64,000 bases of DNA from Planctomycetota bacterium (GCA_021819825.1 JAKAEZ010000011.1:6209-70208), one strand, 5' to 3'; positions 3,501 to 50,920 are shown, counted from the first letter of the stretch. Program-made: numbers and translations. Notes: a model not told the origin generated them from the sequence alone.

Positions 3501-5554
3501 AACTCACGCAGATGGGAAAACTTGATGACGCCCAACGCCATGGCTGTGCCGCTGTGGAAAAGTTCAGCCTGTTGCCCGCACTGTGGCTGGATTTGGCCGG
3601 GGTGTATCGGGCGATGGCGGATGCGGATCGTGAGCAAAGCGCATTGCGGCAGGCGCTGGAGATTAATCGATGCTGGAGCGTTCCCGCCCGGCAACTCGCC
3701 GCGCTGCATATTCGCGCTGGTGATCTGGTGAGTGCCCGAACCGTGTTGGAAGAAATTATTTCCCGCAGCCCCTTCGACGTGCGAAATCAGGGCATGCTGG
3801 CCGATGTGCTTTGGCGAATGGGAGTGCGGCAAAAAGCGATCCAGCAATTACAGCAGGCGTTGGAGCGTGAACCAAACTACCCCTGGGGCTGGGACGCACT
3901 TAGAAATTGGAGCCGCGAACTCAATGAACCGGACGCTCCCCTGGCGTTAGCCCGGCGACTTACGGTCAGTCACGGCGGTGACAGCCGCATGTGGCTGAAT
4001 CTGGCACACATGCTGTATCTGCCCGAACAACAGGAAGAACGGATGGCCGCTTATCATCGGGCCATCGCGGCTGATTCGCGTTGTGCCGAGGCCTACGATG
4101 AACTCGCCACCGCATTGGCCGAAGCGGGGCGTCTGGAAGAAGCGCTGGCGGCATGTCACCCCGCGGTATTCAACGGCGATATACCGTTCGAGTTGCGCGG
4201 TCGCGCCGCTTGGATTCAGTACCAGCGGGGAAACCGTCATCAGGCCATTGAGGATATGGCAGCCCTGACCCGCGAGTCGCCCCGTTATTTCTGGGGAATC
4301 TGTCGCCTGGCGGATTGGTATCAGGTCGCCGGCGATAAAAACCAATATCTTCGCACCGCTGAAACGCTCGTTCGCACGTGGCCCGTCAGTGCCGTGGCAC
4401 ATGGCTATCTCGGTGATGCGCAGCGCGGAAAAGGTGCCATACCGGAAGCGCACAAAAGTTTCCAACGCGCTGTGGAGCTGGATGCCGCCTATACCTTCGC
4501 CATTGAGAACCTTCTGGAAATGGATTTGGCGGCCGGTAACGTTTCCGATGCGGCAAAATGGGAAAAGCAACTGGAGCAACACGCCACCGCCGAACGCTCC
4601 GCCCTGGCCCGGCTGCAAATTGCCGCCGCACGCAAGGATAAGAAAATGGCGATGGTTGAACTCCAGGCGTTGTGCCGGATATCTTCCGCCCCAACCTGGA
4701 TGCTCGAGCGGGCGCTGGACGTGCTGGTTGGAAAAAAATGGAGTGATTCAATCGGATATTACGTCCGTGGCGCGTTGGATCACGATGATTGCAACCCGCG
4801 GATCAGTGAAGTGTGTGTACGTTGCCTGGCGCGGCATCGGCAGTGGAAACTGTGCCGAGCGTTCGTCGCCTCTTTAGATACGCGCACCGATAATTTTCGC
4901 CCAGCCATGCTCGAATTTATTCAACAGATTGTCAACAGCAATAACTTCGCGATGCTCGGATGGCTTATTCGTCGTTACCACAAGGTATTGCATGAAAATA
5001 CAGCGTTATGGGGAAAAATTGGCTATGCCTTGAAACGTTTTGGTCGTCATCGCAGGATTATCAGGTGGATGCGGGATTGGCGCCAACGCCCGGACGTAAA
5101 AGCATGGATGCTGGGCAACCTTGCCGCAACGTACCGCGCTATGGGCAGCCGGGCTAAGGCCACGGAGGTTAGTACATTCGCCATGAAAATCGACGGGGAT
5201 CCCGCGGACCGCACGATCCATGCCCTGTGGCTGGCTGCGGACGCCGCCGTTCTTAAGCGACTCGACAGCGCCCAGGCGTGGTTATCACAAGCCGGCATCT
5301 CGCCCAACAGTCCGCCGCATCACCAGTTTATTCAAGCGATCACGGACGCCGCGCTGCAGCGGCTCCGTGAACCGACAACACCCTTCTCCAGTACGAAGGC
5401 GCAAATGGCCGCGGCCATCAAATTATATCCCGCGTTTCGCAAAACCCGTGAAATAAAATTCCTCTATTGCCAAATTCTCACGCGAATTTCCAGATCAAGC
5501 AGTGGTCTTTCCGGTATGATATGGTGCTGGCGGCAGATAGTTCGCGCGCTTTAA
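563..5554 (+). CDS. 1663-aa TPR-repeat protein with an embedded C39-like (papain-fold) cysteine peptidase domain
   Basis: This is the longest uninterrupted ORF in the region. It has many TPR-like helical repeats (A/Y/L periodicity, e.g. ..AEAYDELATALAEAGRLEEALAA..). All antisense ORFs over it are short and compositionally odd. Confidence 0.8.
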   Translation: MGRRHALQVNGEQLQEVLKLYDAGQYLQAYERGCSLAPLPQWKGVAGRIMAGRLAGNLGGGKMGIVLHYLAYREHPDEPEAWYYYAFVILGWRGPLEAWQFLRDHSMPHSASLELQAHWYAIKARILGTMRDFKGAHRMLAAAEEMHPDDAWLAVEHSSVLEREDRYDEALSVIMRGLEIRPWYRPAVQSAAHLMQLLDQEDQSLELLRQATARNQSMALVLQLAALQTEMRLYPEARLNYSRAIELSPLMDRQVRDWLYGMQSDAAYFCADYSAAVDLAEKSKNRFYQKIAAKLKSAEKDGKRVMLPVGFVRQHHLTCGPAVVACLGRFWQKPVDQQTLAKEICYDGTPNHALRQWANEHGWLVREFRVTWEAAKSLIDRGIPFAISTVEPGNAHLQAVIGYDDLRGTLIIRDPYIRPVVEFVSDITLERYASTGPLGIVLVPEEKKQLLDQVSLCDESLYDQLHALNAALHRHDRDAACAACANLRASAPEHRLTLTAQQAIAAYDADPVALLDCYEKLLALFPADSGLLIAKLQCLKTLARRDQRIDMLGTICASSTAHPIFREMYAKELMHDARQHTAVRRMLRRVIRAMPLAANAYSDLASIFWEQRRFEGSVELYRFACCLDDKNEDFARSYFVACRHFKQESDVLEMLRERFKQFGATTGRPAEMLFWALDALDRTTEAFALLDEALGLRPEDGSLLLLAADNNARHGRLTQAEACMARAKGLCAEREWLRVAADMVLYKGDPREALGLWQKIVDAEPLAMDALRRVTELLVQSVGTQAAESYLDAHCARFPHHYPLLQLRVIWFRDQLPHRYEAAVRQLIHLHPQDGWSRRELVAALLALQQFDQAAAEAEMALTLEPNNPAGHYYSGLVTLRRGNPSEAVAAFKRAITLSVDYTPAIHELLASENSPAQRKAALAFVHAEIVRQTIFGECLTAYREQAAQILDADEVLASLQAALRARPDLWQAWSGVTLQLTQMGKLDDAQRHGCAAVEKFSLLPALWLDLAGVYRAMADADREQSALRQALEINRCWSVPARQLAALHIRAGDLVSARTVLEEIISRSPFDVRNQGMLADVLWRMGVRQKAIQQLQQALEREPNYPWGWDALRNWSRELNEPDAPLALARRLTVSHGGDSRMWLNLAHMLYLPEQQEERMAAYHRAIAADSRCAEAYDELATALAEAGRLEEALAACHPAVFNGDIPFELRGRAAWIQYQRGNRHQAIEDMAALTRESPRYFWGICRLADWYQVAGDKNQYLRTAETLVRTWPVSAVAHGYLGDAQRGKGAIPEAHKSFQRAVELDAAYTFAIENLLEMDLAAGNVSDAAKWEKQLEQHATAERSALARLQIAAARKDKKMAMVELQALCRISSAPTWMLERALDVLVGKKWSDSIGYYVRGALDHDDCNPRISEVCVRCLARHRQWKLCRAFVASLDTRTDNFRPAMLEFIQQIVNSNNFAMLGWLIRRYHKVLHENTALWGKIGYALKRFGRHRRIIRWMRDWRQRPDVKAWMLGNLAATYRAMGSRAKATEVSTFAMKIDGDPADRTIHALWLAADAAVLKRLDSAQAWLSQAGISPNSPPHHQFIQAITDAALQRLREPTTPFSSTKAQMAAAIKLYPAFRKTREIKFLYCQILTRISRSSSGLSGMIWCWRQIVRAL
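1475..1912 (+). other. C39-like cysteine peptidase core inside the TPR protein
   Basis: The segment VGFVRQHHLTCGPAVVACLGRFW...GNAHLQAVIGYDDLRGTLIIRDPY carries Gln313 (1499-1501), Cys319 (1517-1519), His396 (1748-1750) and Asp414 (1802-1804). Their spacing and context match Peptidase_C39 / C39_2 (Q-x5-CG ... H-x-x-V-x-GYD ... I-x-DP). Confidence 0.6.
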
Positions 5555-5593: not shown

Positions 5594-6424
5594 ATGAAAA
5601 TACATGGCGTATCTGATCTGATCACAAACCTTCACGGCGGCTCTGGAAACCTCTTAGGCCGGAGCGGGCATAGGATCGCTGTGGCCGTTTTTGGCCTCTT
5701 GACGTTTGTGTTGCTTCCCGGCGGGGCAACGCTTATTGCCCGACCAAGTGCCCCGGGGGCCGCCAATGGGGAACTGGTAAGGACGCTCGCCGCGATGAGA
5801 TTCGTGAAATCAATTCAGTCAGCATTTTTGTGCGAAAAGAAGTTGCGGGTGCTTCGGAAGCCCTTTTTCAGCAAGGGAATTATTACCATCGCCCGGCCCA
5901 GGCAGGTTCGCTTTGAAACGATTTGGCCCTATCGCTCGTGCTATATTCTTAATAAGCGACATATTGACATGCGTAATGAATCTAATTCGCATTGGCGCAC
6001 CGGGTCGGTGGATTCGCAGCCGGCGATCGGGATGATGATGCGGCAATTCGCGGCCTGGTCTTTGGGAAACATTGGTAAAGTCAGCCGGAAATATCAGGTC
6101 AGCGTGCGGCGTGCCACGCGTCGGGTCCCACAGGATGCTCCCGCCGGCTCCCCGTCGAGTAACCATAAGCCAACACGCTTAACACTTGAACTCTTTACTT
6201 TGCGCCCGCTTAGCGGAGTGCTCAAAGAAGCTATCCATGAGATTCAGCTTGGTTTTGCCACGTCAGCGGGCCAGGGTGCCGCGCGGCGGCAAGCCGCCGC
6301 TAAGCCATTAAAATATATCCGTATTGTGGCAAAAAATGGGGATCAAAGCATCTTCTGGTTGCGCCGCACGCAACTGAATCCGCAATTAAGGCCGCAGTGT
6401 TTTGCGCCGGTAGGGCCGCCATGA
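5594..6424 (+). CDS. LolA-like (outer-membrane lipoprotein carrier-like) protein with an N-terminal hydrophobic signal/anchor
   Basis: The segment FVKSIQSAFLCEKKLRVLRKPFFSKGIITIARPRQVRFETIWPYRSCYILNKRHIDM fits the LolA-like pattern F-x-Q...L..P..S.G.......R.....P. Its TGA overlaps the next ATG (ATGA at 6421-6424). Confidence 0.5.
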   Translation: MKIHGVSDLITNLHGGSGNLLGRSGHRIAVAVFGLLTFVLLPGGATLIARPSAPGAANGELVRTLAAMRFVKSIQSAFLCEKKLRVLRKPFFSKGIITIARPRQVRFETIWPYRSCYILNKRHIDMRNESNSHWRTGSVDSQPAIGMMMRQFAAWSLGNIGKVSRKYQVSVRRATRRVPQDAPAGSPSSNHKPTRLTLELFTLRPLSGVLKEAIHEIQLGFATSAGQGAARRQAAAKPLKYIRIVAKNGDQSIFWLRRTQLNPQLRPQCFAPVGPP

Positions 6425-9400
6425 GCGAACCGACTAGCCAAAGCGAGGCGAGCGCTTCCGGTACTAAGCCTGATCCACTTGCGCGATGGATGATCTGGTG
6501 GTATGGACGATTGCAGGCTCACCGAATTGTTTTAAGCGTGGTGCTTTTGATTCTTGGCGTGCTGCTGTTTGCCGCGTCGCGAAACATCGTGTGGCAGACC
6601 AGTCTGCTGAGTTTTTTTTCCTCGCACAGCGCCGCGATTCATGATGTGCGACTGTCCGAGGATCGTAACGGTTTGGCCGATGCCATGCGGTTGGACGTGC
6701 ATTTTGCTTCGGGGCGAAAAGGGAATTTAGGCCTCGCGGTGCGATTGCTGGCGCAAGACCTGAAAAACTCCCACGTGTTTTCCAAACTTTGGTACGGCGC
6801 GCCGGTATCGCAGCAACTCAAAGTACAGGCGGATTTACAGAATATCGCGCCAATTCTCCTTACACGGCCGCAATTCATTACGCTTCGCCATCGGTTGTCC
6901 GCACACTGGCTGGATCATTATTTTCACCGGCAAGTGCGGAAAATGGCGGGACCGGCCGGGCAAATGGTTGCCGCGGAATTGCAGGCTGATCCATTGGATA
7001 TGCGGCAACTGCTGCTGGCGCAATTTAAATCCGTTCATGCGGGGGCGGGATCACACTTTTCCGGCCCGCTGCTGGTGAGCAGCAATGGCCGCCACGCGAT
7101 GATGATCCTGGTGCCTCCCTTCAGACCGGAGAATGTCGCGGCGTCTGAAAAAATGCTCGGCACCATTCGCTCTGCGATTGGTTCGGTAAAAAAGCACATG
7201 CCCGCTTTACGCGTCTGGATCGTGGGGCCTTATCGTAATTTTGTTGAGAATCAACGGCTGGTGAAGCGTGATCTGAAAATGATTTCAATGGTCGGATCGC
7301 TGCTGGTGGCCGGGGTTATCGCGTGGTATTTCCGGCGCATCGGTTCGGTGGTTCTCTGCATGATTCCGCCCATGATGGGGCTGGGTGCCGCATTGGGCCT
7401 TGCGGGTCTATTGAGCCTGCATATTCCGCTCATCGTTCTGGGGTTTGATGGCCTGCTGTGCGGAGCCACGACCGATTACGGCATACAGCTTATTGCGGCA
7501 CTGCAGCGGCAGGCCGATCAGGTTGGGCACTACCGGGCGGATATGCCGGCTTTAGCGGCCAGAGATCTATTTGGTCCCATATCCATGAGTGTATGTACCA
7601 GCATGACGGGCTACGGAGCACTGGCCGCCAGTTCAGCCCCGGGGTTGCGGACGTTGGGACTTTTTATCGCCGGTGCCACCGGCTGTATCTGGCTGGTAAC
7701 TTTTCTGGTTTTGCCGGCTTATCTGGGAGCCTGGGTAAGCTGTCCCCGGGGGCACACACTCAAGCCGCTTTGCAACGCCGCACACGTGGGCCGGCACCGA
7801 TTAATTAAGCCATTGGGACTGCTTGGTTTTGCCTTGATAACGCTTTGGCTTGGCAGTCGGGCACTGGCGGTGGGTTTTACGGCTAACGGGCAATCCTTAG
7901 ATGGTTCGTCCGCGGCCCTTAAACATGACGAGGCCGAATTTTCCTCTGTGTGGGGGCATTTGCGGCAATCAGGTGTGATTACAATTCACCAGGCGTCCGC
8001 GGACGGGGCCTTAACGGAACTGCACACGTTTGATCACCTGCTTGGCGTGCTCCAAGCTAAACGATTAATTGCGGGGTATACCACGGCCGCGGCCATTCTT
8101 CCCGATACCCATCTCGCGCAACGGCGATTAACCGCGTGGCGGTCATTTTTTACGTCTGAACAAATAGAGCATGACCGGGCGCTCCTGGCGCATGCCGCCT
8201 TAGCCAATGGCTTGCGGGCTAGCGCGTTTCAAGGCGCATTAAAGTCCTGGCAGGTGGCGCAGCGTGCTCCCTCCGCGTTGCATCGGTTACAGCAATCACC
8301 GGCAACTTTGTTTCCCGGCGTAATTAATATTCGCCCGCATGACATTTCCATTTCTTCAACCGTGCAACTTAATACATCTCTGTCGCCAAAGCTTGCCACG
8401 CGATGGGCTGCCGATGTACGGCATGATGTTCCCGGCGTTTCCATCATTTGCGGGCAGGTGCTGTATCTGAACGCATCGCATCATGCCCAGTTGGAAGCCA
8501 GGCGATTATTCCCCTGGGTGACACTGTTTATTTTAATTCCCATGTGGATTTATTTTCGGCGGCTGGATATTGCGGCGATCGCCGCACTTTCCCTGGGCAT
8601 CGGTTTTATCTGGCTGTTGGGCGTAGCGCAGTGGTGGGGAGGCGGCTTAAACCTTCTTTGTCTGGTACCAATACTTTTTACCATGGGGGTGGCTGTGGAT
8701 TATGGCATCTATGCCGCCAGCGATCCATCTCTGCGGCCCGGCGGCGGCATGATGCAAAATCGGAATTCCGCGACATTCCTTTGCGCCGCAACCACGATTC
8801 TGGGCACAGCGGCAATGATTCTGGCAAGTCACCCTGTTCTGCATTGGATTGGTATGACGCTGACGGCTGGAATTCTGGGCGGGTATCTGGCGAGTTATTT
8901 TGTCGTGGGACCCCTGGTAAGGATTGTTCTTAATCCACCGGCAGCGCCCAAACGCAGAGGGATTTACCTGAAGATATTAAATGCGTGGCGAATCATCGTG
9001 GTGCTGGCGATGGTGATGCTGGTGATCGGTCTATTGGCAGGCTGTTGCAATGTGCGACCGCCGCGGGCCTATCGCCCTCCCATGGCTCCCGCGCCAACCA
9101 CGGCGGCGGCACATCGCGCATTGTCGAAATTTCCACGACGATGGGATCGGCAATTTTTTGCAGCACTGGACTGGCGCGGTCATCGCGTAAGCATGATCGG
9201 CAGAATAAAAGGAAACTCGCCAGGCACGCTGCGCGTTACGTGTGCGTCAGAATTTGGAACACTGCTTTGTGACGTGCGAGTGGCGGCAAACCGTTGTCAG
9301 GTCCTGCACAAGGCCGCGGCATTTCCGAAGGCTCTGGCACGGCATATTGGGGTGGATACCGCCTTGGCGCTGCGCTTGCCTGTAGCGGCGGCATTACGGT

Positions 9401-9627
9401 TGAAACATTTTCGTCGTGGCACGCACTTACTTTCCGGAACTCTTCATCAGACATGTTATATATTTGCCGGGCCGGCTGGAAAGTTGCGGGGTTGTCATCT
9501 GCGCCAGTCGCGACAGAACTTTGAAATGCAATATTTGCACTATCAGCGTGGCTATGTTCCGCACAAGGTAATTATCTGGGATGCTGGCGATTGTTTACTG
9601 TTGACTATAAACTTTGATGCGAAATAG
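6421..9627 (+). CDS. MMPL/RND-superfamily predicted exporter fused to a C-terminal lipoprotein-like domain of about 190 aa
   Basis: The protein has two bundles of about 6 TM helices separated by large soluble loops, which is MMPL/COG4258-like topology. The C-terminal part begins with KRRGIYLKILNAWRIIVVLAMVMLVIGLLAGCC, a lipoprotein-signal-like segment. The start is set at ATG 6421, which overlaps the upstream stop. The ORF track starts this ORF at 6397. Confidence 0.7.
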   Translation: MSEPTSQSEASASGTKPDPLARWMIWWYGRLQAHRIVLSVVLLILGVLLFAASRNIVWQTSLLSFFSSHSAAIHDVRLSEDRNGLADAMRLDVHFASGRKGNLGLAVRLLAQDLKNSHVFSKLWYGAPVSQQLKVQADLQNIAPILLTRPQFITLRHRLSAHWLDHYFHRQVRKMAGPAGQMVAAELQADPLDMRQLLLAQFKSVHAGAGSHFSGPLLVSSNGRHAMMILVPPFRPENVAASEKMLGTIRSAIGSVKKHMPALRVWIVGPYRNFVENQRLVKRDLKMISMVGSLLVAGVIAWYFRRIGSVVLCMIPPMMGLGAALGLAGLLSLHIPLIVLGFDGLLCGATTDYGIQLIAALQRQADQVGHYRADMPALAARDLFGPISMSVCTSMTGYGALAASSAPGLRTLGLFIAGATGCIWLVTFLVLPAYLGAWVSCPRGHTLKPLCNAAHVGRHRLIKPLGLLGFALITLWLGSRALAVGFTANGQSLDGSSAALKHDEAEFSSVWGHLRQSGVITIHQASADGALTELHTFDHLLGVLQAKRLIAGYTTAAAILPDTHLAQRRLTAWRSFFTSEQIEHDRALLAHAALANGLRASAFQGALKSWQVAQRAPSALHRLQQSPATLFPGVINIRPHDISISSTVQLNTSLSPKLATRWAADVRHDVPGVSIICGQVLYLNASHHAQLEARRLFPWVTLFILIPMWIYFRRLDIAAIAALSLGIGFIWLLGVAQWWGGGLNLLCLVPILFTMGVAVDYGIYAASDPSLRPGGGMMQNRNSATFLCAATTILGTAAMILASHPVLHWIGMTLTAGILGGYLASYFVVGPLVRIVLNPPAAPKRRGIYLKILNAWRIIVVLAMVMLVIGLLAGCCNVRPPRAYRPPMAPAPTTAAAHRALSKFPRRWDRQFFAALDWRGHRVSMIGRIKGNSPGTLRVTCASEFGTLLCDVRVAANRCQVLHKAAAFPKALARHIGVDTALALRLPVAAALRLKHFRRGTHLLSGTLHQTCYIFAGPAGKLRGCHLRQSRQNFEMQYLHYQRGYVPHKVIIWDAGDCLLLTINFDAK

Positions 9628-20239: not shown

Positions 20240-22315
20240 ATGGGTTCGTTGCCGTTAATGATCTATGCTAATACCATTTTGCTGCTGGCCCCCGGCTTTT
20301 TGCTGGCCGGCTTTCTGATCATAGCCGCCCTGGCTCGACGCTCGGCCTCCACCGCGGCTTATATAAGCATTATTTCACTACTGGCGGCCCTGGGGGCGGC
20401 TCTGGCGGCCATTATCCTCCGCCTGGCACACGCCGGCGTACCGGGACAATCGCAGACGCACAGTCTTTCATTTAACTGGTTGCCTCTGCCGCGGGCCATG
20501 GCCATAGGCGGCACGCCGATGATTACACTGGGCATTTCCAGTGGATCGTTGAATCTGGCTTTTTTCATGTTGTTTCTGTTCATTGTGCTGTTGGTTCAGG
20601 TGCACACGCTGGGGATGCTTAAGTATAAATCCATTCTGCCGGATTACTTTGCCCTGGGCAATTTAACCGCATTTTTCCTGGTTCTGGCGGCGTTGTCCAT
20701 CAATGTGGCGCAGATGTATCTGATGCTGGAACTGGCGGTTTATACGGCCTGCTGCATGATGCAGTGGACCCATCGACCGCCTGAGCAGCCCATTTCGCGA
20801 CGTATCCTGCTGCCCCATGTTATTGCCGATGCCTTATTTGTTCTGGGGATTACCATTTTTGCGCTGCATGGAACTTCGCTGGACCATCAGCTTCTCTTTG
20901 GCCATGCATCGACACGGATGGCCGGATTTGTCCCGGGAATCGAACAGCCCATTGCCTCACTGAACCCTTGGTTCCCTGGTTTAACTTGGCGGAGCCTGGG
21001 AGGTGTGTGCCTGGCGGCCGCGGCGTTGGCGAAAGCCGGGCAGTTTCCCCTGCATACCTGGGTGCCCGAAACCATCCCCGCCTTGTCAGAGGCAAACGCC
21101 CTGCTGGCCGGAACACTGATCGCCGGCGGCGGACTTTTGCTTTTGGCGCATTGCGTGGGGCTGCTGAATCTTAACGCCGCGTTAACGGTGACGATGATGG
21201 GTGCTACGACGCAGTTCTGTGGATCATGTATCGCGCTGGTGCAGAAAGATATTAAACGCGCTGTGGCTTGGCTGTTAATTGCTCAGACGGGTCTGAATTT
21301 AGTATTTTTTGGCTCCGGGAATCAGGCGGCGGGTTTGCTGGGCGGGCTGCTGACCGCTCTGATTTATTGTGGACTGTTTCTGGCTGCCGGCACGGTTTTA
21401 CGCGCCAGCGACGGCCAACGCGATATGACCCAACTCGGCGGTGTGTGGAGACGCTTGCCCATCACCGCTATCGTTAGCGGCGTATTGGTATTGGCAGCCG
21501 CTGGTGTGGGCTTGTCAGGAATGACGGAAATTATGCGGCAGGGGCTGCTGCACGTTCACGCCTATGCCTGGGGAATTGGGGAGTTCGGCAAGTGCTTATA
21601 TTGGGTGCCGCTGATGATGTGCTATGTGACGGCCCTGGCCTTGGCGCGCTGGTGGTATCTGATTTTCGCCGGTAAAGCGCGAGGCCAACCCCTGGAAGAG
21701 GGCGAATTGGCGGTGCAGACATTTCCCCTGCTGATTTTGCTGGTGGGGGTCATGATTGCCGGTCAGCCGTTTGTCGATCTTTCCGGTTTATTTGCCCATG
21801 TAATGGGAATGCCGGGGATTCGACATGTGCGTCACATTCCGGCAGGGTTTGATGGAATGTTATTGCGGCCATTGGAATGGCTGGGGCCTGCGGCCTTGGC
21901 GGTAGTGGCATTGGTCTACGCCGGCGGATTGCGGCAGGCCGATGCGTTGCGCCGGCGCGCGGGGCTGAATCTGGTATACCGGTGGCTGGCGGCGGATATG
22001 TATTTCGCGGATCTGTTTGCGGTTCTGGTGGGTCTGCCCGTGCATGTGATTGGAAAGGCGGCGGCGTTTCTGGACCGGTGGGTGGTGGAATGGCTGCTGG
22101 TAACTCTGGCGATTGTGATCCGCCTGGCCAGCATTCTTGTAGCGGCGGCGGAAACTGGATTAAATGTTTCTTTCTGGGAACGCCTGGACCGTCCGGCGGG
22201 GACGGCGGTCGGCCGGCTTAGGTTGCTGAAGCGCGACAGGCCGATGGTGTATGTCGTCTTGGCGCTGGTCATGCTGGGTGTTATCGCGTTGCTTTCGGTA
22301 TGGGTTAGTAAATAA
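20240..22315 (+). CDS. NuoL/MrpA-like proton-antiporter-family membrane subunit (divergent)
   Basis: It has MLELAVYTACC (TM5 Glu context), LAKAGQFPLHTWVPE (TM7 Lys/His context), QKDIKRAVAWLLIAQTG, and a NuoL-type C-terminal extension (YFADLFAVLVG...DRWVVEWLL) ending in a final TM helix. The start is set at ATG 20240. The track ORF starts at 20108. Confidence 0.7.
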   Translation: MGSLPLMIYANTILLLAPGFLLAGFLIIAALARRSASTAAYISIISLLAALGAALAAIILRLAHAGVPGQSQTHSLSFNWLPLPRAMAIGGTPMITLGISSGSLNLAFFMLFLFIVLLVQVHTLGMLKYKSILPDYFALGNLTAFFLVLAALSINVAQMYLMLELAVYTACCMMQWTHRPPEQPISRRILLPHVIADALFVLGITIFALHGTSLDHQLLFGHASTRMAGFVPGIEQPIASLNPWFPGLTWRSLGGVCLAAAALAKAGQFPLHTWVPETIPALSEANALLAGTLIAGGGLLLLAHCVGLLNLNAALTVTMMGATTQFCGSCIALVQKDIKRAVAWLLIAQTGLNLVFFGSGNQAAGLLGGLLTALIYCGLFLAAGTVLRASDGQRDMTQLGGVWRRLPITAIVSGVLVLAAAGVGLSGMTEIMRQGLLHVHAYAWGIGEFGKCLYWVPLMMCYVTALALARWWYLIFAGKARGQPLEEGELAVQTFPLLILLVGVMIAGQPFVDLSGLFAHVMGMPGIRHVRHIPAGFDGMLLRPLEWLGPAALAVVALVYAGGLRQADALRRRAGLNLVYRWLAADMYFADLFAVLVGLPVHVIGKAAAFLDRWVVEWLLVTLAIVIRLASILVAAAETGLNVSFWERLDRPAGTAVGRLRLLKRDRPMVYVVLALVMLGVIALLSVWVSK

Positions 22316-22372
22316 CGCCATCCTCCGCGGATCGAAAATGCGGTTATTTACCGGCAAGTTTGAAAGGTTGAC

Positions 22373-23950
22373 TTGAAACCATTTTTTTACAGTTCGATTC
22401 TGACATGGCTGATGCTCCTGCCGTTAATCGGCTCATTTATACTGGGGATTTTGCCCATCGGCCGTCTGAGGCTGATTCGCTATAGCGCCGTGGCCGTCAG
22501 CGCGGGTAATATGCTCATTGCGCTGGCGGCGGCGCGGCTGTTTAACTGGTCGCCGCGGTTTGCCGACCAAGCGCAGTTGCAGCAAAATGTGATGTGGTTT
22601 CGCGATTTAAATGTACACTATCATGTCGGTGTGGATGGCTTGTCCATGGTGACGGTGCTGCTGATCTGCGGCATAAGCCTGATCGCGATCCTGGCCAGTT
22701 ACGGCGTGAATGCCCAGGTAAAGGCTTATTATGTGGTCATGCTGCTTCTGGAAGGTTGCGTGGTGGGGGCGGCCGCCAGCATGGATTTGTTCCTTTTCTA
22801 TCTGCTTACTACCGTTTCGCTATTTCCCTGCTTCCTGCTCATTGGCGTGTGGGGTGGGGCACGGCGAAGGCCGGCGGCACTGAAAATGGCGCTGTTCTGG
22901 ATTGCCGGCTCGGCGGCAATGCTGGGCGCATGTCTGCTGATAAGTCTTTCAACACGCGGTGTTGCAGGCTTCGGGCAAGGAACTTTAAGCTTTACACGCA
23001 TCGCCCAAGACCCGCAATTGCGACTGGCTTTGGGGCCGGCCAACCCGTGGACAACAGCGGCCTTTTGGCTGCTGATGCTGGCGCTAGGCATTCGGCTGGG
23101 AACTGCGGGCGTACATTTCTGGCTGCCCGACACCGTGGCTGAATCCGCAGCGCCGTCCGCGATGATGATTATTTGCTCGCAATTTCTCCTCGCGGGTTAT
23201 GCGCTGGATCGCTTTGTGGTGGCCCTGTTTCCGATGCAACTGGTGATCTGGCGCAATACCTTGGCCATTATCGGCGCTGCCGGCGTGATTTATGCGGCCC
23301 TTTGCGGCCTGGCGCAAAGTGATTTCCGCCGTGTGATTGCCTATTGGCTGATCGGGCAGGCTGGCTTTGTTCTTCTGGGAGTTGCCGCGGGAAATATAAC
23401 GGGCTTCAATGGGGGCTTTTTGTTAACGCTTGGCGCGTCGGTAACGACGATGGCTATGCTATGGACCAGTCATATTATTGAAGTGCGGGCCAGCCACCGC
23501 GACTTGCCGCGCCTGGGGGGGCTGGCCCAGGTAATACCGGATTTATTTATTTTCTCGATGATTGGCTTTATGTCGGCGCTGGCCTTGCCCGGTCTGGCGG
23601 TGTTCGGCGGCGACCTGCTGACCATACTGGGAATGTTTCGTGCGGCATCCGTTAGCGCAAGACAGCACGTGCTGATGGGTCATGCCCTGTTGCCGGCGGC
23701 GCTGGCGATGTGTATTGCGATGGTGCTTATGGCGGCGGTGCTGTTGTGGACCATTGAGCGGCTGTTTTTTGGGCCGGGGCGTCCGGAGCATCAGCACTTT
23801 CATGCCTTGTCGCTGCGTGAACGACTGGTATTTTTGCCTTTGATCATCGCATTGCTTGCGGGAGGAATTTTGCCTACGCTGCTGGTGCTGGATCCCATTG
23901 CGCCGGTGCTCCAGACACTGGTGCGCGAGCTAAGTGGCGTTCTGCATTAA
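22373..23950 (+). CDS. NuoM/NdhD-like antiporter-family membrane subunit (degenerate motifs)
   Basis: It has VHFWLPDTVAESAAPSAMM, PCFLLIGVWGG and RRVIAYWLIGQAGFVLLG, which match the Proton_antipo_M layout. The start is TTG after gaaagg. Confidence 0.7.
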   Translation: MKPFFYSSILTWLMLLPLIGSFILGILPIGRLRLIRYSAVAVSAGNMLIALAAARLFNWSPRFADQAQLQQNVMWFRDLNVHYHVGVDGLSMVTVLLICGISLIAILASYGVNAQVKAYYVVMLLLEGCVVGAAASMDLFLFYLLTTVSLFPCFLLIGVWGGARRRPAALKMALFWIAGSAAMLGACLLISLSTRGVAGFGQGTLSFTRIAQDPQLRLALGPANPWTTAAFWLLMLALGIRLGTAGVHFWLPDTVAESAAPSAMMIICSQFLLAGYALDRFVVALFPMQLVIWRNTLAIIGAAGVIYAALCGLAQSDFRRVIAYWLIGQAGFVLLGVAAGNITGFNGGFLLTLGASVTTMAMLWTSHIIEVRASHRDLPRLGGLAQVIPDLFIFSMIGFMSALALPGLAVFGGDLLTILGMFRAASVSARQHVLMGHALLPAALAMCIAMVLMAAVLLWTIERLFFGPGRPEHQHFHALSLRERLVFLPLIIALLAGGILPTLLVLDPIAPVLQTLVRELSGVLH

Positions 23951-24083
23951 CCGCGGGAACTGATGGGTAAAAGGGCTGTCACAAACTCGGGGCGTTTAAA
24001 ATGTTTTTATCGGAAATTATTGCACAGGAGAGCCACGCCTGACGTACCACGTTCTTGCCATCTTAGCCCCGCAGATTGTACTG

Positions 24084-25523
24084 TTGCTTACCCTTGGGGT
24101 TCTGGCACTTGCGGCGCTGCTGCCGAGCGGCACGTCGCGCTCGGCCAGTGTCATGGTCTGTTTTACGGGCCTGACGATTGCAACGCTGGCGCAACTGCGG
24201 TTTTATCCTCGAACATTTGGTACGGTGGCATCAAACTATACCTCACACTGGTTGGTGATAGACCCTATGGGATGGATATTTACCAGTGTTATTTTGCTTA
24301 TCGCGACTGCGGCGGTGATGACCTGGCGGCTAATAAGTCCCAGCGGGCAGGGAGATTGGCGATACTGCCTGTTGGTTACCTTAAGCACGCTGGGCTGGAG
24401 CGTGATGCCGGCATTGCATAGTTTGCCGATGATGGCCGGATGTATGCTGCTGGCATCGCTTCCTCTGGCGGTGCCATTTACCTTTGGGACAGGCGGTGAC
24501 AGGACGTTTGCAACGGTGGCGCTGCTGGCCAGTTTGCTGATAATGCTTTTAGCCCTGGCGGCCCTGACACAGGGAGGTTTTGGCCTGCGGATCGGCCAAG
24601 CGCTCATATCCGCATCGCACGGCGCATCAGCATGGGGCGGCGTGCTGGTGGTTTTATTTATTTCACCCATATTATTCTGGGCAGGCAGCCTTCCACTGAT
24701 CTGGTGGTACGGTAGTGCCGCCGGGGATGCGCCCGCGTCGACCGTTTTGTTTTTGCTGCTGGTGCCGGCCATTGGATCCTGCGCGGTCTATCTGCGAATT
24801 ATGCATCGTTTAATTTCCGTCGCGCCCGCGGCCGCCAATGTCGTCACGCTAACGGTGGTTTTTCTGGGCGCTCTGGCCGTTATCGCGTATGGAATTAAGG
24901 CTATGTTTCAAGTCGTGGTTCCGGATATTTTGGGAAATATAGTCGGGATATTCATGGCCTGCACTTTTGTGACTCTGGCCGCGGGGATTTCGTTAAGTCA
25001 TGTGGCCCCTGCGGATTTGGTGGGGTGTGTGCTGTTATACGCCCTTGCCGCGGGGATTACGGTCGGTTCATCCGGGGGAATTATCGGCCGAAAATCGTTG
25101 GGATTAAAACATCAATGGCCTTCATTTACTCGCGTAAAACCCTTGTATTCACTGCTTTTGCTCGTGGCCCTGTTATCGCTTGGCGGCCTTCCGCCGACAC
25201 TGGGAAGCATTGCCCGAGTTGACTTGTTTCTCGCCGTCGGACGCGGCACCGTATTGGGGCTGACAGTATTGGGGATCAACATGCTGGGAATTCTACTGGG
25301 CGGCAGTGCCGTGATGCGCGTTGGAACTTATGCGCTTATGGGGCTGCCGGAAATAGACTCGCCACAAGTAGGTACGGGTAAACGCCGAAAGAAGCGGCAT
25401 TTGACCGCTGGGCTGTTGCTGCTGCTGACGGCGGCCGCGATCTTAAACGCCTTCGCGTTGCCGGCGTACAATCCGATTCAGCAACTGGTGACCGCCTTTG
25501 CTCCGACCTGGGTAGCGCGGTGA
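24084..25523 (+). CDS. NuoN-like antiporter-family membrane subunit (highly degenerate)
   Basis: It is about 14 TM helices long and of NuoN-like length, with LVIDPMGWIFTSVILLIATAAVM and GDAPASTVLFLLL in NuoN-like positions. TTG 24084 is the first canonical start after the in-frame TAA at 23997. Confidence 0.6.
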   Translation: MLTLGVLALAALLPSGTSRSASVMVCFTGLTIATLAQLRFYPRTFGTVASNYTSHWLVIDPMGWIFTSVILLIATAAVMTWRLISPSGQGDWRYCLLVTLSTLGWSVMPALHSLPMMAGCMLLASLPLAVPFTFGTGGDRTFATVALLASLLIMLLALAALTQGGFGLRIGQALISASHGASAWGGVLVVLFISPILFWAGSLPLIWWYGSAAGDAPASTVLFLLLVPAIGSCAVYLRIMHRLISVAPAAANVVTLTVVFLGALAVIAYGIKAMFQVVVPDILGNIVGIFMACTFVTLAAGISLSHVAPADLVGCVLLYALAAGITVGSSGGIIGRKSLGLKHQWPSFTRVKPLYSLLLLVALLSLGGLPPTLGSIARVDLFLAVGRGTVLGLTVLGINMLGILLGGSAVMRVGTYALMGLPEIDSPQVGTGKRRKKRHLTAGLLLLLTAAAILNAFALPAYNPIQQLVTAFAPTWVAR

Positions 25524-27612: not shown

Positions 27613-27824
27613 TCCGCGCCTTCCGCCGCTCGCCGGATGATCAATCCGCTGAATAATCCCGTGCCGCCAAACGACCATCAGGTTCTCATCACGGTGTTCT
27701 ATGGCACAATGCGACTTCGGTGCCTTCGGCGATATAGTTGCGCGACGGATTAACGGATACAATTGTTACCTTGCCGCGGCGTTGGCTGCGGTTGATTGTG
27801 TTTGCACGGCTGGAAGACAAAAAT

Positions 27825-28913
27825 ATGGCATCGAAGGAAGACGTACTTGAAGCATTGCGGTCGGTTCAGGATCCCGAATTATTTAAGGATATTGTGAGCC
27901 TCAACATGGTAAAGTCGGTTGAGGTGCACGGCACAACGGCCAAAATTGATGTGGAGCTTACCACGCCGGCGTGCCCGCTTAAGGACCGAATTCGCGCGGA
28001 TGTGACGGCGGCGGTAGCGCGGGTGTCGGGCATTACAAAAGTGGATGTTACCCTCAGCAGCCGGGTGCGATCGGGAAGCGATCCGCGGACGATTCTTCCC
28101 GGCGTAAAAAATATTATCGCGGTGGGAGCGGGCAAAGGGGGCGTTGGTAAAAGCACAATTTCAGTGGCCATCGCGGCCGGACTGGCTTTGCGCGGTGCCA
28201 CTGTTGGGCTTATGGATGCCGATGTCTATGGCCCATCGATTCCCACGATGACTGGTTTGGAAGCCCAATCACCGGCGGTGCAGGGTGACAAGATCATCCC
28301 GTTTGTCGTGGGGCCGCACGGGCAGAGCATCAAAGTCATGTCCATTGGGTTTATTGTTCCGCGTGAAAAAGCTCTCATCTGGCGTGGCCCGATGGTGCAC
28401 GGCGTCATCAAGCAGTTTCTTGAGCAGGTGCAATGGGGTGATCTGGATTATCTGGTGGTAGATTTACCGCCGGGCACCGGAGACGTGTCTTTGACTTTGG
28501 CACAGTCTATTCCATTGACCGGCGCGGTGATCGTGGCGACGCCGCAAGAAGTGGCGCTGATGGATGCACGCCGGGCGGTGCGAATGTTTCAGCAACTGGG
28601 CGTCTCGATTCTGGGGGTGGTGGAGAATATGAGTTATTTTGTCTGCGATCATGGAACACAATACGATCTTTTCGGGCGCGGCGGCACGCAACGCATGGCC
28701 CAGGAAATGGGCCTGCCCTTCCTGGGCGAACTGCCTATGGATATCCGCATTCCGCGGCATGGTGATAAGGGAGAACTCTTTGCGGGTTTTAAAGCGGGTT
28801 GTCCTTCCCAGAGCTTCCTTGACAGCATTGTGGAAAACCTCGCCGGCCAGATCAGCGTGCGCAACATGACCCGCCCGGCGGCAAAATCTTTGAAACTCGA
28901 GGTCACCGAGTAA
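27825..28913 (+). CDS. apbC: Mrp/ApbC/NBP35-family Fe-S cluster carrier ATPase with an N-terminal DUF59 domain
   Basis: It has VQDPELFKDIVSLNMV (DUF59), the deviant Walker A GKGGVGKST, and a later CDHG motif. ATG 27825 was chosen within the longer track ORF. Confidence 0.85.
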   Translation: MASKEDVLEALRSVQDPELFKDIVSLNMVKSVEVHGTTAKIDVELTTPACPLKDRIRADVTAAVARVSGITKVDVTLSSRVRSGSDPRTILPGVKNIIAVGAGKGGVGKSTISVAIAAGLALRGATVGLMDADVYGPSIPTMTGLEAQSPAVQGDKIIPFVVGPHGQSIKVMSIGFIVPREKALIWRGPMVHGVIKQFLEQVQWGDLDYLVVDLPPGTGDVSLTLAQSIPLTGAVIVATPQEVALMDARRAVRMFQQLGVSILGVVENMSYFVCDHGTQYDLFGRGGTQRMAQEMGLPFLGELPMDIRIPRHGDKGELFAGFKAGCPSQSFLDSIVENLAGQISVRNMTRPAAKSLKLEVTE

Positions 28914-37917: not shown

Positions 37918-38997
37918 TTAGCGCTGATATAGCGGCAAATAATGGTAGGGTACGCATAACGCCAGCACCGCCATGGCCGTCGCATAAGCTTTGGACCCTT
38001 GCTGCTCAATGCCGTCCTTGGGGGTCCAGGAGCCATTGCTATTTTGTAATTGAATTAATTCATGGCGGATAGTACCGTAAATCTGCTGGTAATATTTGCC
38101 ACCCAATTCATTGGCCGCCTGACTGCAATAATAGACCGCATAAAAATAAAAATTCTCATTGGGTGATAGCGGATGATTCAATAAAAAATCTCCGCCCGCG
38201 ATGGCCTGGTGTGAATTTCTCTGGCCCATAAGTTCTAACGCCAGAATTCCGGTACCCGTGCGTGCGCGCCCTGGGGGGCCGCCCGGCTGATACGCGAAGC
38301 CGCCATTGACGTTGGCATCGCGCAGCACGAACGCGATACCATTTTTGATCGCCGCCGCGGGAATGGCCGCTCCGCAGTCCGCCGCGCCCCGCAGGGCCAT
38401 GAGTTGCCAGCCCGTGCAGGAAATATCCGCATCCGTTGCCGTGGGCTGATACCGCCAGCCGCCCGCAAAAATGCCACGCGAATTTTTTTGTGCCGCAAGA
38501 ATTAGCGCCACCGCCTTGGCTAAAACCTTTCCAATACGCTTGCGCAACGTCGGATTTGCCACACCATAAGCCTCTGAGAGCATCACCGTGGATATGCCGT
38601 GATCATACATGGTGCCGCCGGGCACAGTGATGTACCCATCGGGGAGTTGGTGCTCCAGCACCCAGTTGATGCCCCGATCAATGACCTGATGGTGGGGCCC
38701 GGTGCCCGGAGTGTATCCGCGCGCTAAAAATGCCATCACCGCCAGAGATGTCACGGCGGGGCGGTCATTGCGGTTGCAGGGGAATGTTCCACTGGTTTTC
38801 TGATGTTTCGTCAGCCACCCAAGCCCATGGGCGATCGCGCTTTTTACATACACCGCAATGGGGCGTTCTGCCTGCACTGCGGTTACGTTCAGCGAAAGAC
38901 CGGCCGAGATAATTGCAATCGCAGCCAGGACGACCGGCCGCCGATAGCGGATACGTTTGATAAATCCTGTCTGTGGTAATGGTGAGCAAAAAATCAT
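37918..38997 (-). CDS. Secreted prenyltransferase/squalene-oxidase-repeat (alpha/alpha-toroid, terpene-cyclase-like) protein
   Basis: It has an N-terminal signal/anchor and repeated G-G-W/F-x-Y motifs (GGWRYQPT, NGGFAYQPGG, NGSWTPKDG). Its ATG overlaps the upstream stop (ATGA at 38997-38994). Confidence 0.6.
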   Translation of the reverse strand: MIFCSPLPQTGFIKRIRYRRPVVLAAIAIISAGLSLNVTAVQAERPIAVYVKSAIAHGLGWLTKHQKTSGTFPCNRNDRPAVTSLAVMAFLARGYTPGTGPHHQVIDRGINWVLEHQLPDGYITVPGGTMYDHGISTVMLSEAYGVANPTLRKRIGKVLAKAVALILAAQKNSRGIFAGGWRYQPTATDADISCTGWQLMALRGAADCGAAIPAAAIKNGIAFVLRDANVNGGFAYQPGGPPGRARTGTGILALELMGQRNSHQAIAGGDFLLNHPLSPNENFYFYAVYYCSQAANELGGKYYQQIYGTIRHELIQLQNSNGSWTPKDGIEQQGSKAYATAMAVLALCVPYHYLPLYQR

Positions 38998-41900
38998 CGC
39001 ACCCGCATTTCTGAAAGCCGGATGTAATAGTCACGCACCATGCGTTTATAGCCGGCGGGAATATTTTGCCGCGCTGTATTTAACAATTGTCGTTTGGCCA
39101 GTGGGCCTAGATTGCTCCACTGGGCCGGACTGATTCCCATAGCCAGTACCGGCTTGGGCGGCGCGCCCGCGGGGCCGCCGGGGCCGGTCATGCCGGTGGG
39201 GTTGCCGCTTAAGCCTTGGCCTGCTGCGCCGGGGGTGCCGGCCTGACCCGCCATGGCCACACCCTCACCGCTACCGCCGGTCGGTGCGCCCCGATTGCCA
39301 TTTGCACCTTGCGTATTCATGGTTTCTCCCGCCGCTCCAAGGGATTGCGCCGCCTGTTGTGCCGCCTGTGAATTCCCCTGCCCGGCCTGCTGTTGGGCCT
39401 GCAGGGCATTTTGTACCTGTTGGGCGGCGGACATAATGCGCTGGTAGGAACTTTGGCCGGTCTGGGCCTGTTGGTTGCCGCTGGGGCCGTTATTGCGATT
39501 CGCCGGCTGCTTGTCTGCGCCTTTGCCGTCGGTTCGGTTCTGCTGCTGGATTTGTCCGGCAATCATGTTTTTATATTGCGGTACATTCCGCATTTCCGGC
39601 GAATGCAAGGCCCCATTTAAATCATCCAAGGCAATCCGTAAGTGTTGTAGAGCAGATTGCTGATGTTCCACGGCTGCTGCCTGGTTTAATTTGCCAAGGG
39701 CCCGCGCGGAATCTTTTTGGTCACGTGTTCCTGATTGCATCTGCCGACGCGCTTGAGCAATATCTGAATTTAAATCCGGTGCACCGGTCTGGGTTTGCTG
39801 CTCAAGCTTTTTGGCAAGCGCTGCGGCTTCCGCAATTTGATCGGCAATCTTTCGGGCATTTTGTGCCTGCTGCCCCGGATTTACCGCGGGTGCGGCAATC
39901 TGAGCCATCAATTGTCTTGTCTTTGCGGCCAACTGTTGCTGCTGTTGTGCCAGTTGGTTGGCATTGCGGGCCAACTGCTGGAGTTGTCCGCTTTGGCCGG
40001 CGTGTGTTTGGGTGTGTGCCAACTGCTGCTGCACCGCGTTATTCATAAATTGCTGGGCACGTTGCAGCGACGCCGAGGCCTGCTCCGCATTCTGATCCGC
40101 CGCCGCCCGCATGGCCGCCTGAGCCTGCGTCATGGCGGCATTGAGGTTTTGAGCTTCCGTCTGCGTGGGAGCCTGGTTGAGCATTTTTTGGGCCAATTGA
40201 TTCATTGCACCGGCTGCGCGCTGCAGGGCGTTGGCTTGCTGCACGGGTGAGGTATTGCCTTGGGGATTGGTTGCCGCATTGATATGCGCAAGTTGATGCT
40301 CATTGGCCATTGCCGCCTGATGAGCCTGCCGCTGTTGCGGCGTGGGGGGCTGTGCCGCGTGATTTAAATTAGCAGCGGCTTGTTGCAGATTGCGGGCAAT
40401 GTTGTTCTGGCCTTCCAAGGCCGCCGGCCCTGCATGTTGCCGCAGATTGCTTACTACAGCATTCATTACTGGTTCATTGGGCAAATTCGGTTGTGCCTGA
40501 TCCGCGGATTTGGCTGATGTTTCAAGGGCTTTAATGTGCTTATTGAGCTGTTGCTGCTGGACGGCAAGCTGCGCGATCCGCGTTTTTGCCCACTGGGCGT
40601 GTAATTGCTGCTGGAGCGTGGCGGTCGCTTGTTGCTGAGCGGAGATAATTTGTCCCAGTTGATTTTTCAAGCTCGCCATGGTGGGTTGCACCTTTGCGGC
40701 TACCGGCGTTTGTAACGCCTTGTGTTGCTGCAGAAGTTTGACGAGCTGGCGATGTAATGTCTGCTGCTGACGCTGCACGTTGGGTGAATTCGGTTGTTCG
40801 GTCATTTTTTTCGCTAACGCCCGTTGTCGCCGGGCCAGAGTTTTCAAACTGTCCGCCAGTTGTTGTTGGCCCGCCTGTTGGGCCATCTGCTGTTGAAGTT
40901 TGTTTAGCGCCTGTTGCGACTGCCCGAGGTTCTGTTGCGCTGCCGCCAGATCGGCGTTCCGTTGTGCGGATTGTTGCGGCGTGGCGAAACTGGCGGCCGC
41001 CACATTATTGGCGGCCTCGGGTAAATGTTGTTCAGCGGCTGCGGCGGCTTTCTGAGCGTTTGTTGAAAAAGCGGAATTTTGGGATGCTTTAGCTGCCGCC
41101 TGCAAATTATCCACCGTCTGGGCCAGATTCTGCTGCAGTTGTTCCGCCGCGCGTTTTTGTCCATCTGAAAATCGTCGATTTCCCGGCGTGCGCTGTAAAT
41201 TGGCGATACGTTGCTTATCTCTATTAATGGTGTTTTGCGCTTTGGCAATGGCGGCCTTTACCGCGCGATAGGCCGCCATGTCTCGCCGCTGCTGATAGCT
41301 TTGCTGCAAATGCCGGTCGATGAGCAGTTCATGCAGGGCGGTGCGGGTTTTCTGATGCCCTGGCCGGCGGTTGTCGATCGCTTCAAGTCGATAGAATATT
41401 GCTCTGGCATGGGGGCGGTCGGCGGTCAAGAGTTGATCCGCGACTGACAGATTCCAGGTTTGTTGCACATGCCGGGGATCTTTCATTCCCAAATCAATGT
41501 TGTAACTCATCGGCAAAGAATGGCCTACCGTGACAATGGCCTGCACCCCGGAAAGTCCAAATTCATCCGATGCGTCAAACAGAATCGGCACGGAATCATC
41601 CACGCGCACCCGCACGCGCCGGGCCGGCTGCACAATGTGAATTAGCGGCGGTTGATCCGGAATCGCGACGATGGGCCATAAATGATTATCGTTGTTTTTT
41701 ATTCCCTGCGCATTGATCAGATTGATGCGATAGGTGCAACTGTACTCTACCGGAAAGGTTGCCTGATATTCCAGGCCGGTCAGTTGCGTCAACGGCAGCG
41801 GTTGCACCACGCCGGCCACGGGCGTGCCCATGGCGACAAAACTTTTCTTCGCCAACGGTTCGGAAGCATGAACAATTAATTGCACCTGCGTGCCGATGAT

Positions 41901-47480: not shown

Positions 47481-47482
47481 AA

Positions 47483-50222: not shown

Positions 50223-50920
50223 ACCAGACATCTGTAAGGCAAGGCACCATGATGGCTTCGGCACCCTATCCGTGGCCCTACGACGGTGATTTTCGCCGCG
50301 AAAATACGGCGCTATTTATTATTGACATGCAGACGGATTTCTGCGGTAAAGGTGGGTATATTGATCTGCTGGGATATGACATTTCCATAACCCGCGCCTG
50401 TATTGAACCCATTGGTCGATTGCTGTCAGCCATGCGCGCGGCTGGTTTTCATATTATTCACACACGGGAGGGGCATCGAGCGGATTTATCTGATCTTCCA
50501 GCCAATAAGCGCTGGCGGTCGCGCCAGGGCCATGCCGGAATTGGTGATCCGGGGCCGTGCGGACGCGTGCTGGTCCGCGGTGAACCGGGCTGGGAGATTG
50601 TCCCGGAATTAGCGCCGCTTCCCGGTGAGCCAATTATCGACAAGCCGGGAAAAGGATCGTTTTACGGCACTGACCTGGACATGATTTTGCGGCAGCGCGG
50701 TATACGAAACATTATTCTCACCGGCATTACCACGGATGTATGCGTGCATACGACCATGAGGGAAGCCAATGACCGCGGTTATGAATGCGTGCTTTTAAGC
50801 GATTGTTGCGCCGCCACGGATCCCGCTAATCACCTGGCCGCAATGAATATGATCAAAATGCAGAACGGCGTTTTCGGTGCTGTGGGGACATCCTTACAAC
50901 TGATGGAGATAATCCAATGA
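50219..50920 (+). CDS. Isochorismatase-like cysteine hydrolase, paralogue 2
   Basis: It has [22 protein letters not shown] and [11 protein letters not shown]. By eye it is roughly 60% identical to paralogue 1. Confidence 0.8.

Follow-up and report, generated by a model that had tools for sequence, protein, structure and literature searches.

A window of 64,000 nucleotides from a Planctomycetota bacterium (GCA_021819825.1, JAKAEZ010000011.1:6209-70208) was analyzed, and three adjoining plus-strand genes at 20240-25523 were found to encode relatives of NuoL, NuoM and NuoN, the antiporter-like subunits of the distal arm of complex I. Our verdict is that this L-M-N trio is a charge-stripped, autonomous and selectively maintained derivative of that arm, carried by a small uncultured group of Phycisphaerae. 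Few known membrane proteins are as conserved as the antiporter-like subunits of complex I, and in every current pumping model known to us their buried Lys/Glu/His chain is central. In the trio, the channel residues were identical at 3 of 21 key positions. We put at about even the chance that the trio survives on its own as a non-pumping remnant of the distal arm, repurposed for a structural or docking role.

Family assignment was based on profiles, alignments and a structural model. The three open reading frames (ORFs) were all intact and lay in the order L-M-N. The NuoL-like gene (20240-22315, plus strand, 691 amino acids) was identified with PF00361 and the NuoL models of NCBIfam, phmmer against PDB chains and MAFFT alignment, and the NuoM-like gene (22373-23950, plus strand, 525 amino acids) with TIGR01972, phmmer against PDB NuoM and MAFFT. 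PF00361 matched the L-like protein with E=4.9e-24 (85.5 bits) and the M-like protein with E=3.4e-35 (122.1 bits), and both passed the gathering threshold of 21.5 bits. The best NCBIfam models of the L-like protein were NuoL models aligned over its full length (residues 15-642), with scores under their cutoffs (TIGR01974, 137 versus 407.5 bits; NF005141, 153 versus 556 bits). The M-like protein passed TIGR01972 (NDH_I_M, 289.8 versus 263.8 bits, residues 10-517) and was far under all NuoM equivalog cutoffs (for example, 237 versus 550). In addition, the C-terminal extension of the L-like protein (21950-22312, plus strand) was recognized by alignment, a hydropathy scan and the NF005141 match. 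It aligned with transmembrane helix (TM) 15, the lateral helix and TM16 of NuoL from E. coli and from a canonical Phycisphaerae operon used as reference (L022; related loci are given here by such numbers). The lateral (HL-like) helix covered residues ~571-650, including the invariant D612/R613, and was followed by TM16 at 665-691.

The NuoN-like gene (24039-25523, plus strand) required additional evidence. The N-like protein of the window had no match in Pfam, including PF00361, while PF00361 scored 28.8 bits on its orthologue at L018 and 74.4 bits on N of the sister clade described below. It was under the NuoN cutoff (TIGR01770, 18.3 versus 332.6 bits, E=9e-4), and the best E value against the NuoN models of NCBIfam was about 6e-4. 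A profile of the N-like family matched PDB NuoN chains of Paracoccus and Mycobacterium over nearly the full length (E=5.5e-5). An AlphaFold2 (AF2) model from a 35-sequence alignment reached a mean predicted local distance difference test score (pLDDT) of 79.4 and a predicted TM-score (pTM) of 0.83, with a fold biased toward NuoN by the canonical NuoN sequences that the alignment included; the 10-sequence family alignment alone gave a pLDDT of 47. When this AF2 model was searched with Foldseek, the top 29 matches were NuoN/NdhB/ND2 chains with TM-scores of 0.70-0.80. Broken helices were present in the model at TM7 (198-214 / 224-230) and TM12 (368-382 / 388-400). Profile and fold evidence together place the N-like protein in the antiporter-like family, and the alignments show that L, M and N descend from NuoL, NuoM and NuoN, respectively. 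A first-pass annotation, read from the DNA by eye, had described three consecutive Proton_antipo_M-type proteins in L-M-N order with a NuoL-type C-terminal extension on the first. This description held, through profiles for L and M and through profile plus fold for N.

The start of the N-like gene was also considered. In the region 24000-24084, the first ATG/GTG/TTG codon of the N-like frame was TTG 24084. The frame was open on the 5' side of this codon, and the segment RLTYHVLAILAPQ was kept as protein in relatives. The in-frame upstream segment RLTYHVLAILAPQIVLL, likewise conserved as protein in relatives, made up the N-terminal half of TM1. At 24039, a CTG codon was located 6 nt after a Shine-Dalgarno-like AGGAGAG (24026-24032, plus strand), which was read from the sequence. 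Because the upstream segment is conserved and this site precedes the CTG, translation most likely starts at CTG 24039 (494 amino acids), not at TTG 24084 (479 amino acids); a start at TTG 24084 would halve TM1. The non-canonical start would likely cause gene callers to shorten the protein. N-like residues are numbered from 24039 in this text.

The channel residues were then compared. Residue positions were checked in NuoL, NuoM and NuoN of E. coli K-12 and aligned by MAFFT with relatives and canonical controls. As a second check on register, phmmer/HMMER pairwise alignments to PDB chains were used, and these agreed with MAFFT. In the M-like protein, the TM5 Glu (E144 in E. coli) was replaced by T147 (codon 22811-22813), the TM7 Lys (K234) by R241 (23093-23095), the TM8 Lys (K265) by L272 (23186-23188) and the TM12 Glu (E407) by D414 (23612-23614). 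Both His residues were also replaced (H322 by Q329, H348 by A355). In the N-like protein, the TM5 Glu (E133) became L137 (24447-24449), the TM7 Lys (K217) W214 (24678-24680), the TM8 Lys (K247) A244 (24768-24770) and the TM12 Lys (K395) R393 (25215-25217), with all codons on the plus strand as in M. The His of the PFHxW motif (H224) became I221, and a further His (H305) became F305. None of the 12 canonical residues of M and N was identical. All three identities were found in the L-like protein, which kept the TM5 Glu (E144 = E164, 20729-20731), D178 (= D197) and the TM7 Lys (K229 = K265, 21032-21034). Its TM8 His was lost (H254 to A290, 21107-21109, plus strand), as were the His/His/Lys residues of TM11 (H334 to G368, H338 to T372, K342 to Y376). 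No Lys or Asp was found at the positions of K399/D400 in the SKD motif of TM12; the register there shifted between runs, and none of the registers gave K or D. Charge sign was preserved at three further positions of the 21, namely M K234R, M E407D and N K395R.

These alignments bore directly on the calls of the first-pass annotation. Its register and codon coordinates were confirmed, and phmmer and MAFFT reproduced the M-like changes of the TM5 Glu to Thr147 (22811-22813), the TM7 Lys to Arg241 (23093-23095) and the TM8 Lys to Leu. Its reading of the N-like protein, in which the TM5 Glu had become Leu and the VPFH.W motif was altered, agreed with L137 and I221. The L-like protein did keep the TM5 Glu and TM7 Lys and did lack the TM8 His, the HxxxH..K and the SKDE-type signatures, as had been proposed.

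The substitutions were not a general feature of related proteins. The L022 operon retained 21 of 21 key residues. At the six NuoM positions, the nearest homologues outside the family read EKKHHE in 108 of 109 cases and EKKHFE in the remaining one, whereas the representatives of the NuoM-like family read TR[LV]... in 13 of 13. Because of this contrast, the substitutions were far from chance. The Glu/Lys pair of the L-like protein was variable, with Ala at L001, Gln/Asn/Gln at L020 and Ala/Arg in the sister clade. Being replaced in some members, even this last pair is dispensable. The M-like proteins carried polar residues that were family-specific and invariant (H367, E370 and H375). In the L-like protein, R433, H438 and H440 (21536-21559, TM12b region) were invariant within the trio-only clade; their conservation did not extend to the sister clade, and canonical NuoL lacked them at those positions.

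The sister clade consisted of three loci (L014, L015 and L025), with identities of 46-50% for M, 31-35% for L and about 20-24% for N. Two extra small membrane genes were located directly 5' of L-M-N (L014:6924-7822, L015:6950-7841, L025:6950-7838), giving the order J?-K-L-M-N. The K gene, found in the sister clade only, was a NuoK homologue (NuoK/MrpC-like, PF00420, 26.5 bits). The other upstream protein, a membrane protein of 182-188 amino acids, had the size of NuoJ and no significant family match. In the K-like protein both essential Glu residues were gone (E36 to Leu, E72 to Gln). The key positions of the sister proteins read T, R, L, I/M, C, E in M; N, F, N/H, A/V, L, K in N; and A, D, R, A, A, L, A in L. 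Few of the polar residues specific to the trio family were conserved there. Because the sister L, M and N also lacked the relay, the charge loss is ancient and probably older than the split of the two clades. The five-gene set appears to mark a point partway through the dismantling.

The reference operon, L022 (L022:1-12416; GCA_046754505.1, JBHHVX010000083.1), from a metagenome-assembled genome (MAG) other than those carrying the trio, was contiguous in the order A-B-C-D-H-J-K-L-M-N, with no E/F/G. As additional features, a gene for a Uma2-family endonuclease lay between nuoC and nuoD, NuoH was unusually long (570 amino acids, possibly a NuoI fusion) and NuoL had 808 amino acids. Because this operon is contiguous and keeps all 21 residues, a split operon is not the norm of the lineage. 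Thus the trio was not simply the distal half of a split canonical nuo operon typical of its relatives, an explanation that the first-pass annotation had raised.

The genomic context indicated that the trio was a unit of its own. In the window it was flanked by a divergent acyltransferase and GT2 upstream and by fucI downstream. Across the 64-kb window, phmmer with the Nuo subunits of E. coli and L022 detected no homologue of NuoA-K, and the flanks (±10 kb) at 12 related loci were likewise free of homologues of NuoA-K, including NuoB, NuoD and NuoH, by phmmer. Among the Pfam-annotated genes of the window there was no hydrogenase, no Mrp small-subunit gene (MrpB/C/E/F/G) and no DabA (PF10070), and no DabA/MpsB (PF10070) partner was present among the Pfam-annotated flanking genes of the related loci. 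The earlier description of a stand-alone trio without such flanks was therefore upheld. The trio was present in at least four unrelated neighbourhoods. In the window, L004, L007 and L009-L011, GT2 and acyltransferase genes were upstream and fucI downstream. In L001, L005, L012, L013 and L023, DUF218 and YkuD genes preceded the trio and fucI followed it. A P-type ATPase gene upstream and an alpha-fucosidase gene downstream were found in L018 and L019, and glutamate synthase upstream with a convergent Na_H_Exchanger gene downstream in L020 and L021. When flanking ORFs were compared all against all, L, M and N were the only genes common to all 10 loci compared. The operon is shown to be autonomous by these unrelated neighbourhoods, by the restriction of common genes to L, M and N and by the lack of NuoA-K homologues in the window and the flanks.

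The family was rare. The N-like query recovered 11 clusters among 5.8 billion proteins. In a set of 1.84 billion proteins, the N-like profile recovered five representatives with E<1e-30 and a sixth at 3e-14. The M-like and L-like queries gave 12-14 close clusters each, followed by a jump to canonical NuoM/NuoL at no more than 37% identity. All named sources of the family were MAGs of Phycisphaerales, Phycisphaerae or Planctomycetota, and the trio was found only in such metagenome genomes. Besides the source of the window, the trio carriers include GCA_021809365.1, DAHVEJ01, DAHXLH01, JAKBCC01, JAJZDN01, JAJZVR01 and JAJZJL01. Three more loci came from a metagenome scan; their architectures were those already seen, and they brought no new context. 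Literature searches found no account of a charge-less or orphan nuoLMN set.

Maintenance of the genes was evaluated from the substitution pattern. The ratio of nonsynonymous to synonymous substitution rates (dN/dS) was calculated by the Nei-Gojobori method for 11 pairs with dS of 0.08-1.5. The values were 0.04-0.09 for the M-like gene, 0.08-0.14 for the L-like gene and 0.17-0.31 for the N-like gene. Adjacent genes served as controls and gave about 0-0.035 (apbC) and 0.04-0.07 (lpd). The M-like gene was as constrained as neighbouring housekeeping genes, and the N-like gene was relaxed and clearly not neutral. The trio is under purifying selection, which answered the proposal of the first-pass annotation to examine conservation and dN/dS in relatives. 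Full-length intact ORFs were present at every one of more than 15 loci, and the proteins were intact across lineages down to ~20% (N), 31% (L) and 46% (M) identity. Long invariant motifs were present in the family. The identity of L/M/N to L022 was 24/33/21% for the window, compared to 43/38/33% for E. coli, so that the trio stands much further from canonical subunits than canonical subunits of different phyla stand from one another. This divergence pattern fits a burst of change followed by renewed constraint.

These selection data also decided the fate of one alternative, that the trio genes are decaying paralogues or pseudogenes. Most functional residues are gone, the proteins evolved faster than canonical subunits as judged by the identities to L022, and Pfam no longer recognizes the N-like protein, all of which would be expected of decay. 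However, the intact ORFs in diverged lineages, the dN/dS of 0.04-0.31 and the long invariant motifs effectively refute this explanation, and we consider it very improbable. Among the options that the first-pass annotation had listed, the decaying paralogue was thus discarded, and the structural or scaffold module and the repurposed transporter or sensor both stand, with no result that discriminates between them.

The loss of pumping follows from the known mechanism. In canonical subunits, protons move laterally along a path that begins at the TM7 Lys, passes the TM8 Lys/His and the TM11 His and ends at the TM12 Lys/Glu, and Arg is unable to shuttle protons. This path was interrupted in all three subunits of the trio. 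Because the path is broken in L, M and N and because Arg cannot replace Lys in it, conventional pumping by the trio is excluded by inference from the established mechanism. The view that an arm missing its charged relay is not a conventional pump was therefore borne out, with 18 of the 21 key residues lost. In E. coli NuoN, the single mutations K247A and K395A lowered NADH oxidase activity and pumping in proteoliposomes to ~6-17% of wild type (PMC13073174). The N-like protein of the window carries a natural Ala at the K247 position, and most of its other axis positions are occupied by hydrophobic residues.

What was retained points to architecture. The fold, the broken TM7/TM12 helices and the L-type lateral helix are all present. 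The positions that face a neighbouring subunit in complex I were taken from published structures, and by this comparison the charge-bearing residues N R393, M R241, M D/E414 and L K/R265 would sit at subunit interfaces. The retained fold, helices and interface charges fit an arm that is kept for its architecture. As the simplest history, we propose that deletion or segmental duplication left only the 3'-terminal part, J-K-L-M-N, of an ancestral nuo operon, that the Glu/Lys/His relay of this remnant was swapped for hydrophobic or non-titratable residues before the two clades split, and that the clade of the window then shed J and K. Because charge-bearing residues persist at the interface positions, L, M and N may still pack next to one another as an N-M-L arm that the lateral helix clamps together. 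Their role would need the shape of the arm and not the relay, and a membrane-embedded structural or docking module would be the most likely form of it. With a probability somewhat short of even, we suggest that this self-sufficient 'ghost arm', rid of both its proton relay and its redox partner, has been kept over the long term in the cytoplasmic membrane of Phycisphaerae for a structural, docking or sensing function. If so, no earlier case would be known of a bacterial descendant of the complex I membrane arm that is dedicated to a non-bioenergetic role.

Several points weigh against this interpretation of a repurposed, non-pumping arm. Expression, assembly and the lack of ion conduction are predictions from the genes, and the N-like AF2 model is biased toward canonical NuoN. 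No partner or conserved neighbour at the loci compared indicates a function. Elsewhere in the genome there may be genes for a proximal part of complex I that docks the trio. In addition, the conservative changes K234R, E407D and K395R, together with the family-invariant polar residues, may form a pathway that was not recognized.

The docking of a proximal module leads to an alternative in which the trio would be the non-pumping distal tail of a real complex I, or of a ferredoxin-dependent 11-subunit relative, with nuoA-K located elsewhere. We consider this unlikely. Such an enzyme would pump through the proximal E-channel alone and have a reduced H+/e- ratio. In its favour, the order of the genes and the lateral helix match complex I, and in the sister clade L is immediately preceded by NuoK-like and possibly NuoJ-like genes. 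Phycisphaerae orders range from carriers of NADH dehydrogenase to strict fermenters without a respiratory chain, and they often encode NADH dehydrogenase without nuoF/G (PMC11266412). However, splitting is not the norm of the lineage as judged from the contiguous, fully canonical L022 operon, and nuoA-K genes were found neither within 64 kb nor in the 12 flanks. The N-like protein, which would be needed to dock NuoK/J/A, evolves the fastest (~20% identity to canonical NuoN, dN/dS up to 0.31), and the sister K-like protein lacks both essential Glu. Furthermore, a single K247A or K395A change in NuoN cripples electron transfer in E. coli, as cited above. If the trio did dock onto a proximal module, nature would have provided a complex I whose distal arm is silent, which would bear directly on the debate over where the four protons are pumped.

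The possibility of an unrecognized pathway was considered as a transporter with new chemistry, in which remodelled cavities would pass a different ion, or a substrate of hydrophobic or amphipathic nature, with family-specific polar residues taking the place of the Lys/Glu/His chain. This is a minority possibility in our estimate. It is favoured by purifying selection on the M-like gene that equals that on housekeeping enzymes, by the retained discontinuous TM7/TM12, which are typical of transport sites, and by the invariant charged and His residues that the family has of its own. Isolated antiporter modules can also conduct unaided, according to one study (PMC11496545). However, the Leu, Trp, Phe, Ala and Ile on the central axis fill the polar path and do not rebuild one, and the Arg residues cannot carry protons. 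The sister clade keeps few of the polar residues that mark the family, and no substrate-related gene was consistently adjacent in the 10 loci.

The interpretation of the trio as a charge-stripped distal arm has wider meaning. A natural lineage that keeps the three-subunit arm under strong selection after removal of the chain would indicate that the scaffold is valued apart from pumping. The trio would serve as a natural 'dead' reference assembly that separates residues for folding and assembly from those for conduction. Together with the sister clade and its J?/K-like genes, it would give a stepwise view of how a respiratory machine may be dismantled and reused.

Other features of the window and of related loci were recorded. 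Genes for fucI or fucosidase were downstream of the trio in several sub-clades and not in L020, L014 or L015, so a functional tie to fucose genes was rejected in favour of synteny. An ApbC/Mrp/NUBPL-type Fe-S carrier ATPase gene (ParA PF10609 plus FeS_assembly_P, 27738-28913) was located two genes 3' of the trio, and it was placed likewise in L004. In eukaryotes, NUBPL acts in the assembly of complex I; a functional tie of the trio to this ATPase was considered, and the adjacency was judged to be coincidental housekeeping synteny. A scan for promoters and terminators around the trio performed no better than on shuffles, and Rfam and tRNA scans of the window gave no matches. At 46347-53159, genes for a binding protein, two permeases and an ATPase formed an ABC transporter operon of the Bmp/PnrA type, and three separate isochorismatase-family genes were interleaved with it (49323-50222, 50150-50920 and 52479-53159). 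Three very large ORFs were on the minus strand (563-5554, 1663 amino acids; 6397-9627, 1076 amino acids; 38994-42938, 1314 amino acids). In addition, a lone NuoM-like gene was found at L016:623-2230 (535 amino acids, 37% identity to the M-like protein of the window) with all six canonical residues present. It adjoined gcvH and three genes without a Pfam match, and the 4.4-kb contig contained no other nuo gene.

Finally, the trio was compared with known systems. It shares with NuoL/M/N of complex I (Nqo12/13/14, ND5/ND4/ND2) the L-M-N order, the TIGR01972 match and the TM15/lateral helix/TM16 extension, and the N-like model superposes on NuoN/NdhB/ND2 (TM-score 0.70-0.80) with broken TM7/TM12. 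It differs in keeping 3 of 21 channel residues, in having no nuoA-K or peripheral-arm genes nearby, and in L-like and N-like scores far under the family cutoffs (137 versus 407.5 and 18 versus 332.6 bits). The Mrp (Mnh/Pha) antiporter, built from MrpA and MrpD with B, C, E, F and G, is likewise a redox-independent membrane complex of PF00361 proteins. However, the trio lacks MrpB/C/E/F/G genes as well as the C-terminal domain of MrpA, its best profiles are those of Nuo, and the Glu/Lys residues common to Mrp and complex I are gone from it. DabB-DabA, MpsA-MpsB and NdhF3/NdhD3-CupA resemble the trio as PF00361 proteins repurposed outside complex I. As far as we know, these systems retain the charged relay and always come with a dedicated partner gene, whereas the trio has no DabA or CupA-type gene, keeps three subunits together and has lost the relay. 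It also differs from membrane-bound hydrogenase and FHL-type complexes, since no NuoB, NuoD or NuoH homologues were found at the trio loci (window and flanks).

Two further cases concern antiporter-like subunits outside complex I. In the study by Beghiah et al. 2024 (PMC11496545), engineered isolated complex I antiporter modules keep their ion pairs and conduct protons. They share with the trio the autonomy of antiporter-like subunits from complex I and differ in that the ion pairs retained there are gone in the natural trio. Metazoan ND2 has a second task apart from complex I, that of an adaptor by which Src kinase is anchored to NMDA receptors (PMC13073174). It is a precedent for an antiporter-like subunit serving as a non-bioenergetic membrane docking protein. 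However, ND2 represents the eukaryotic moonlighting of a functional subunit, and the trio would represent a dedicated, charge-stripped bacterial paralogue.

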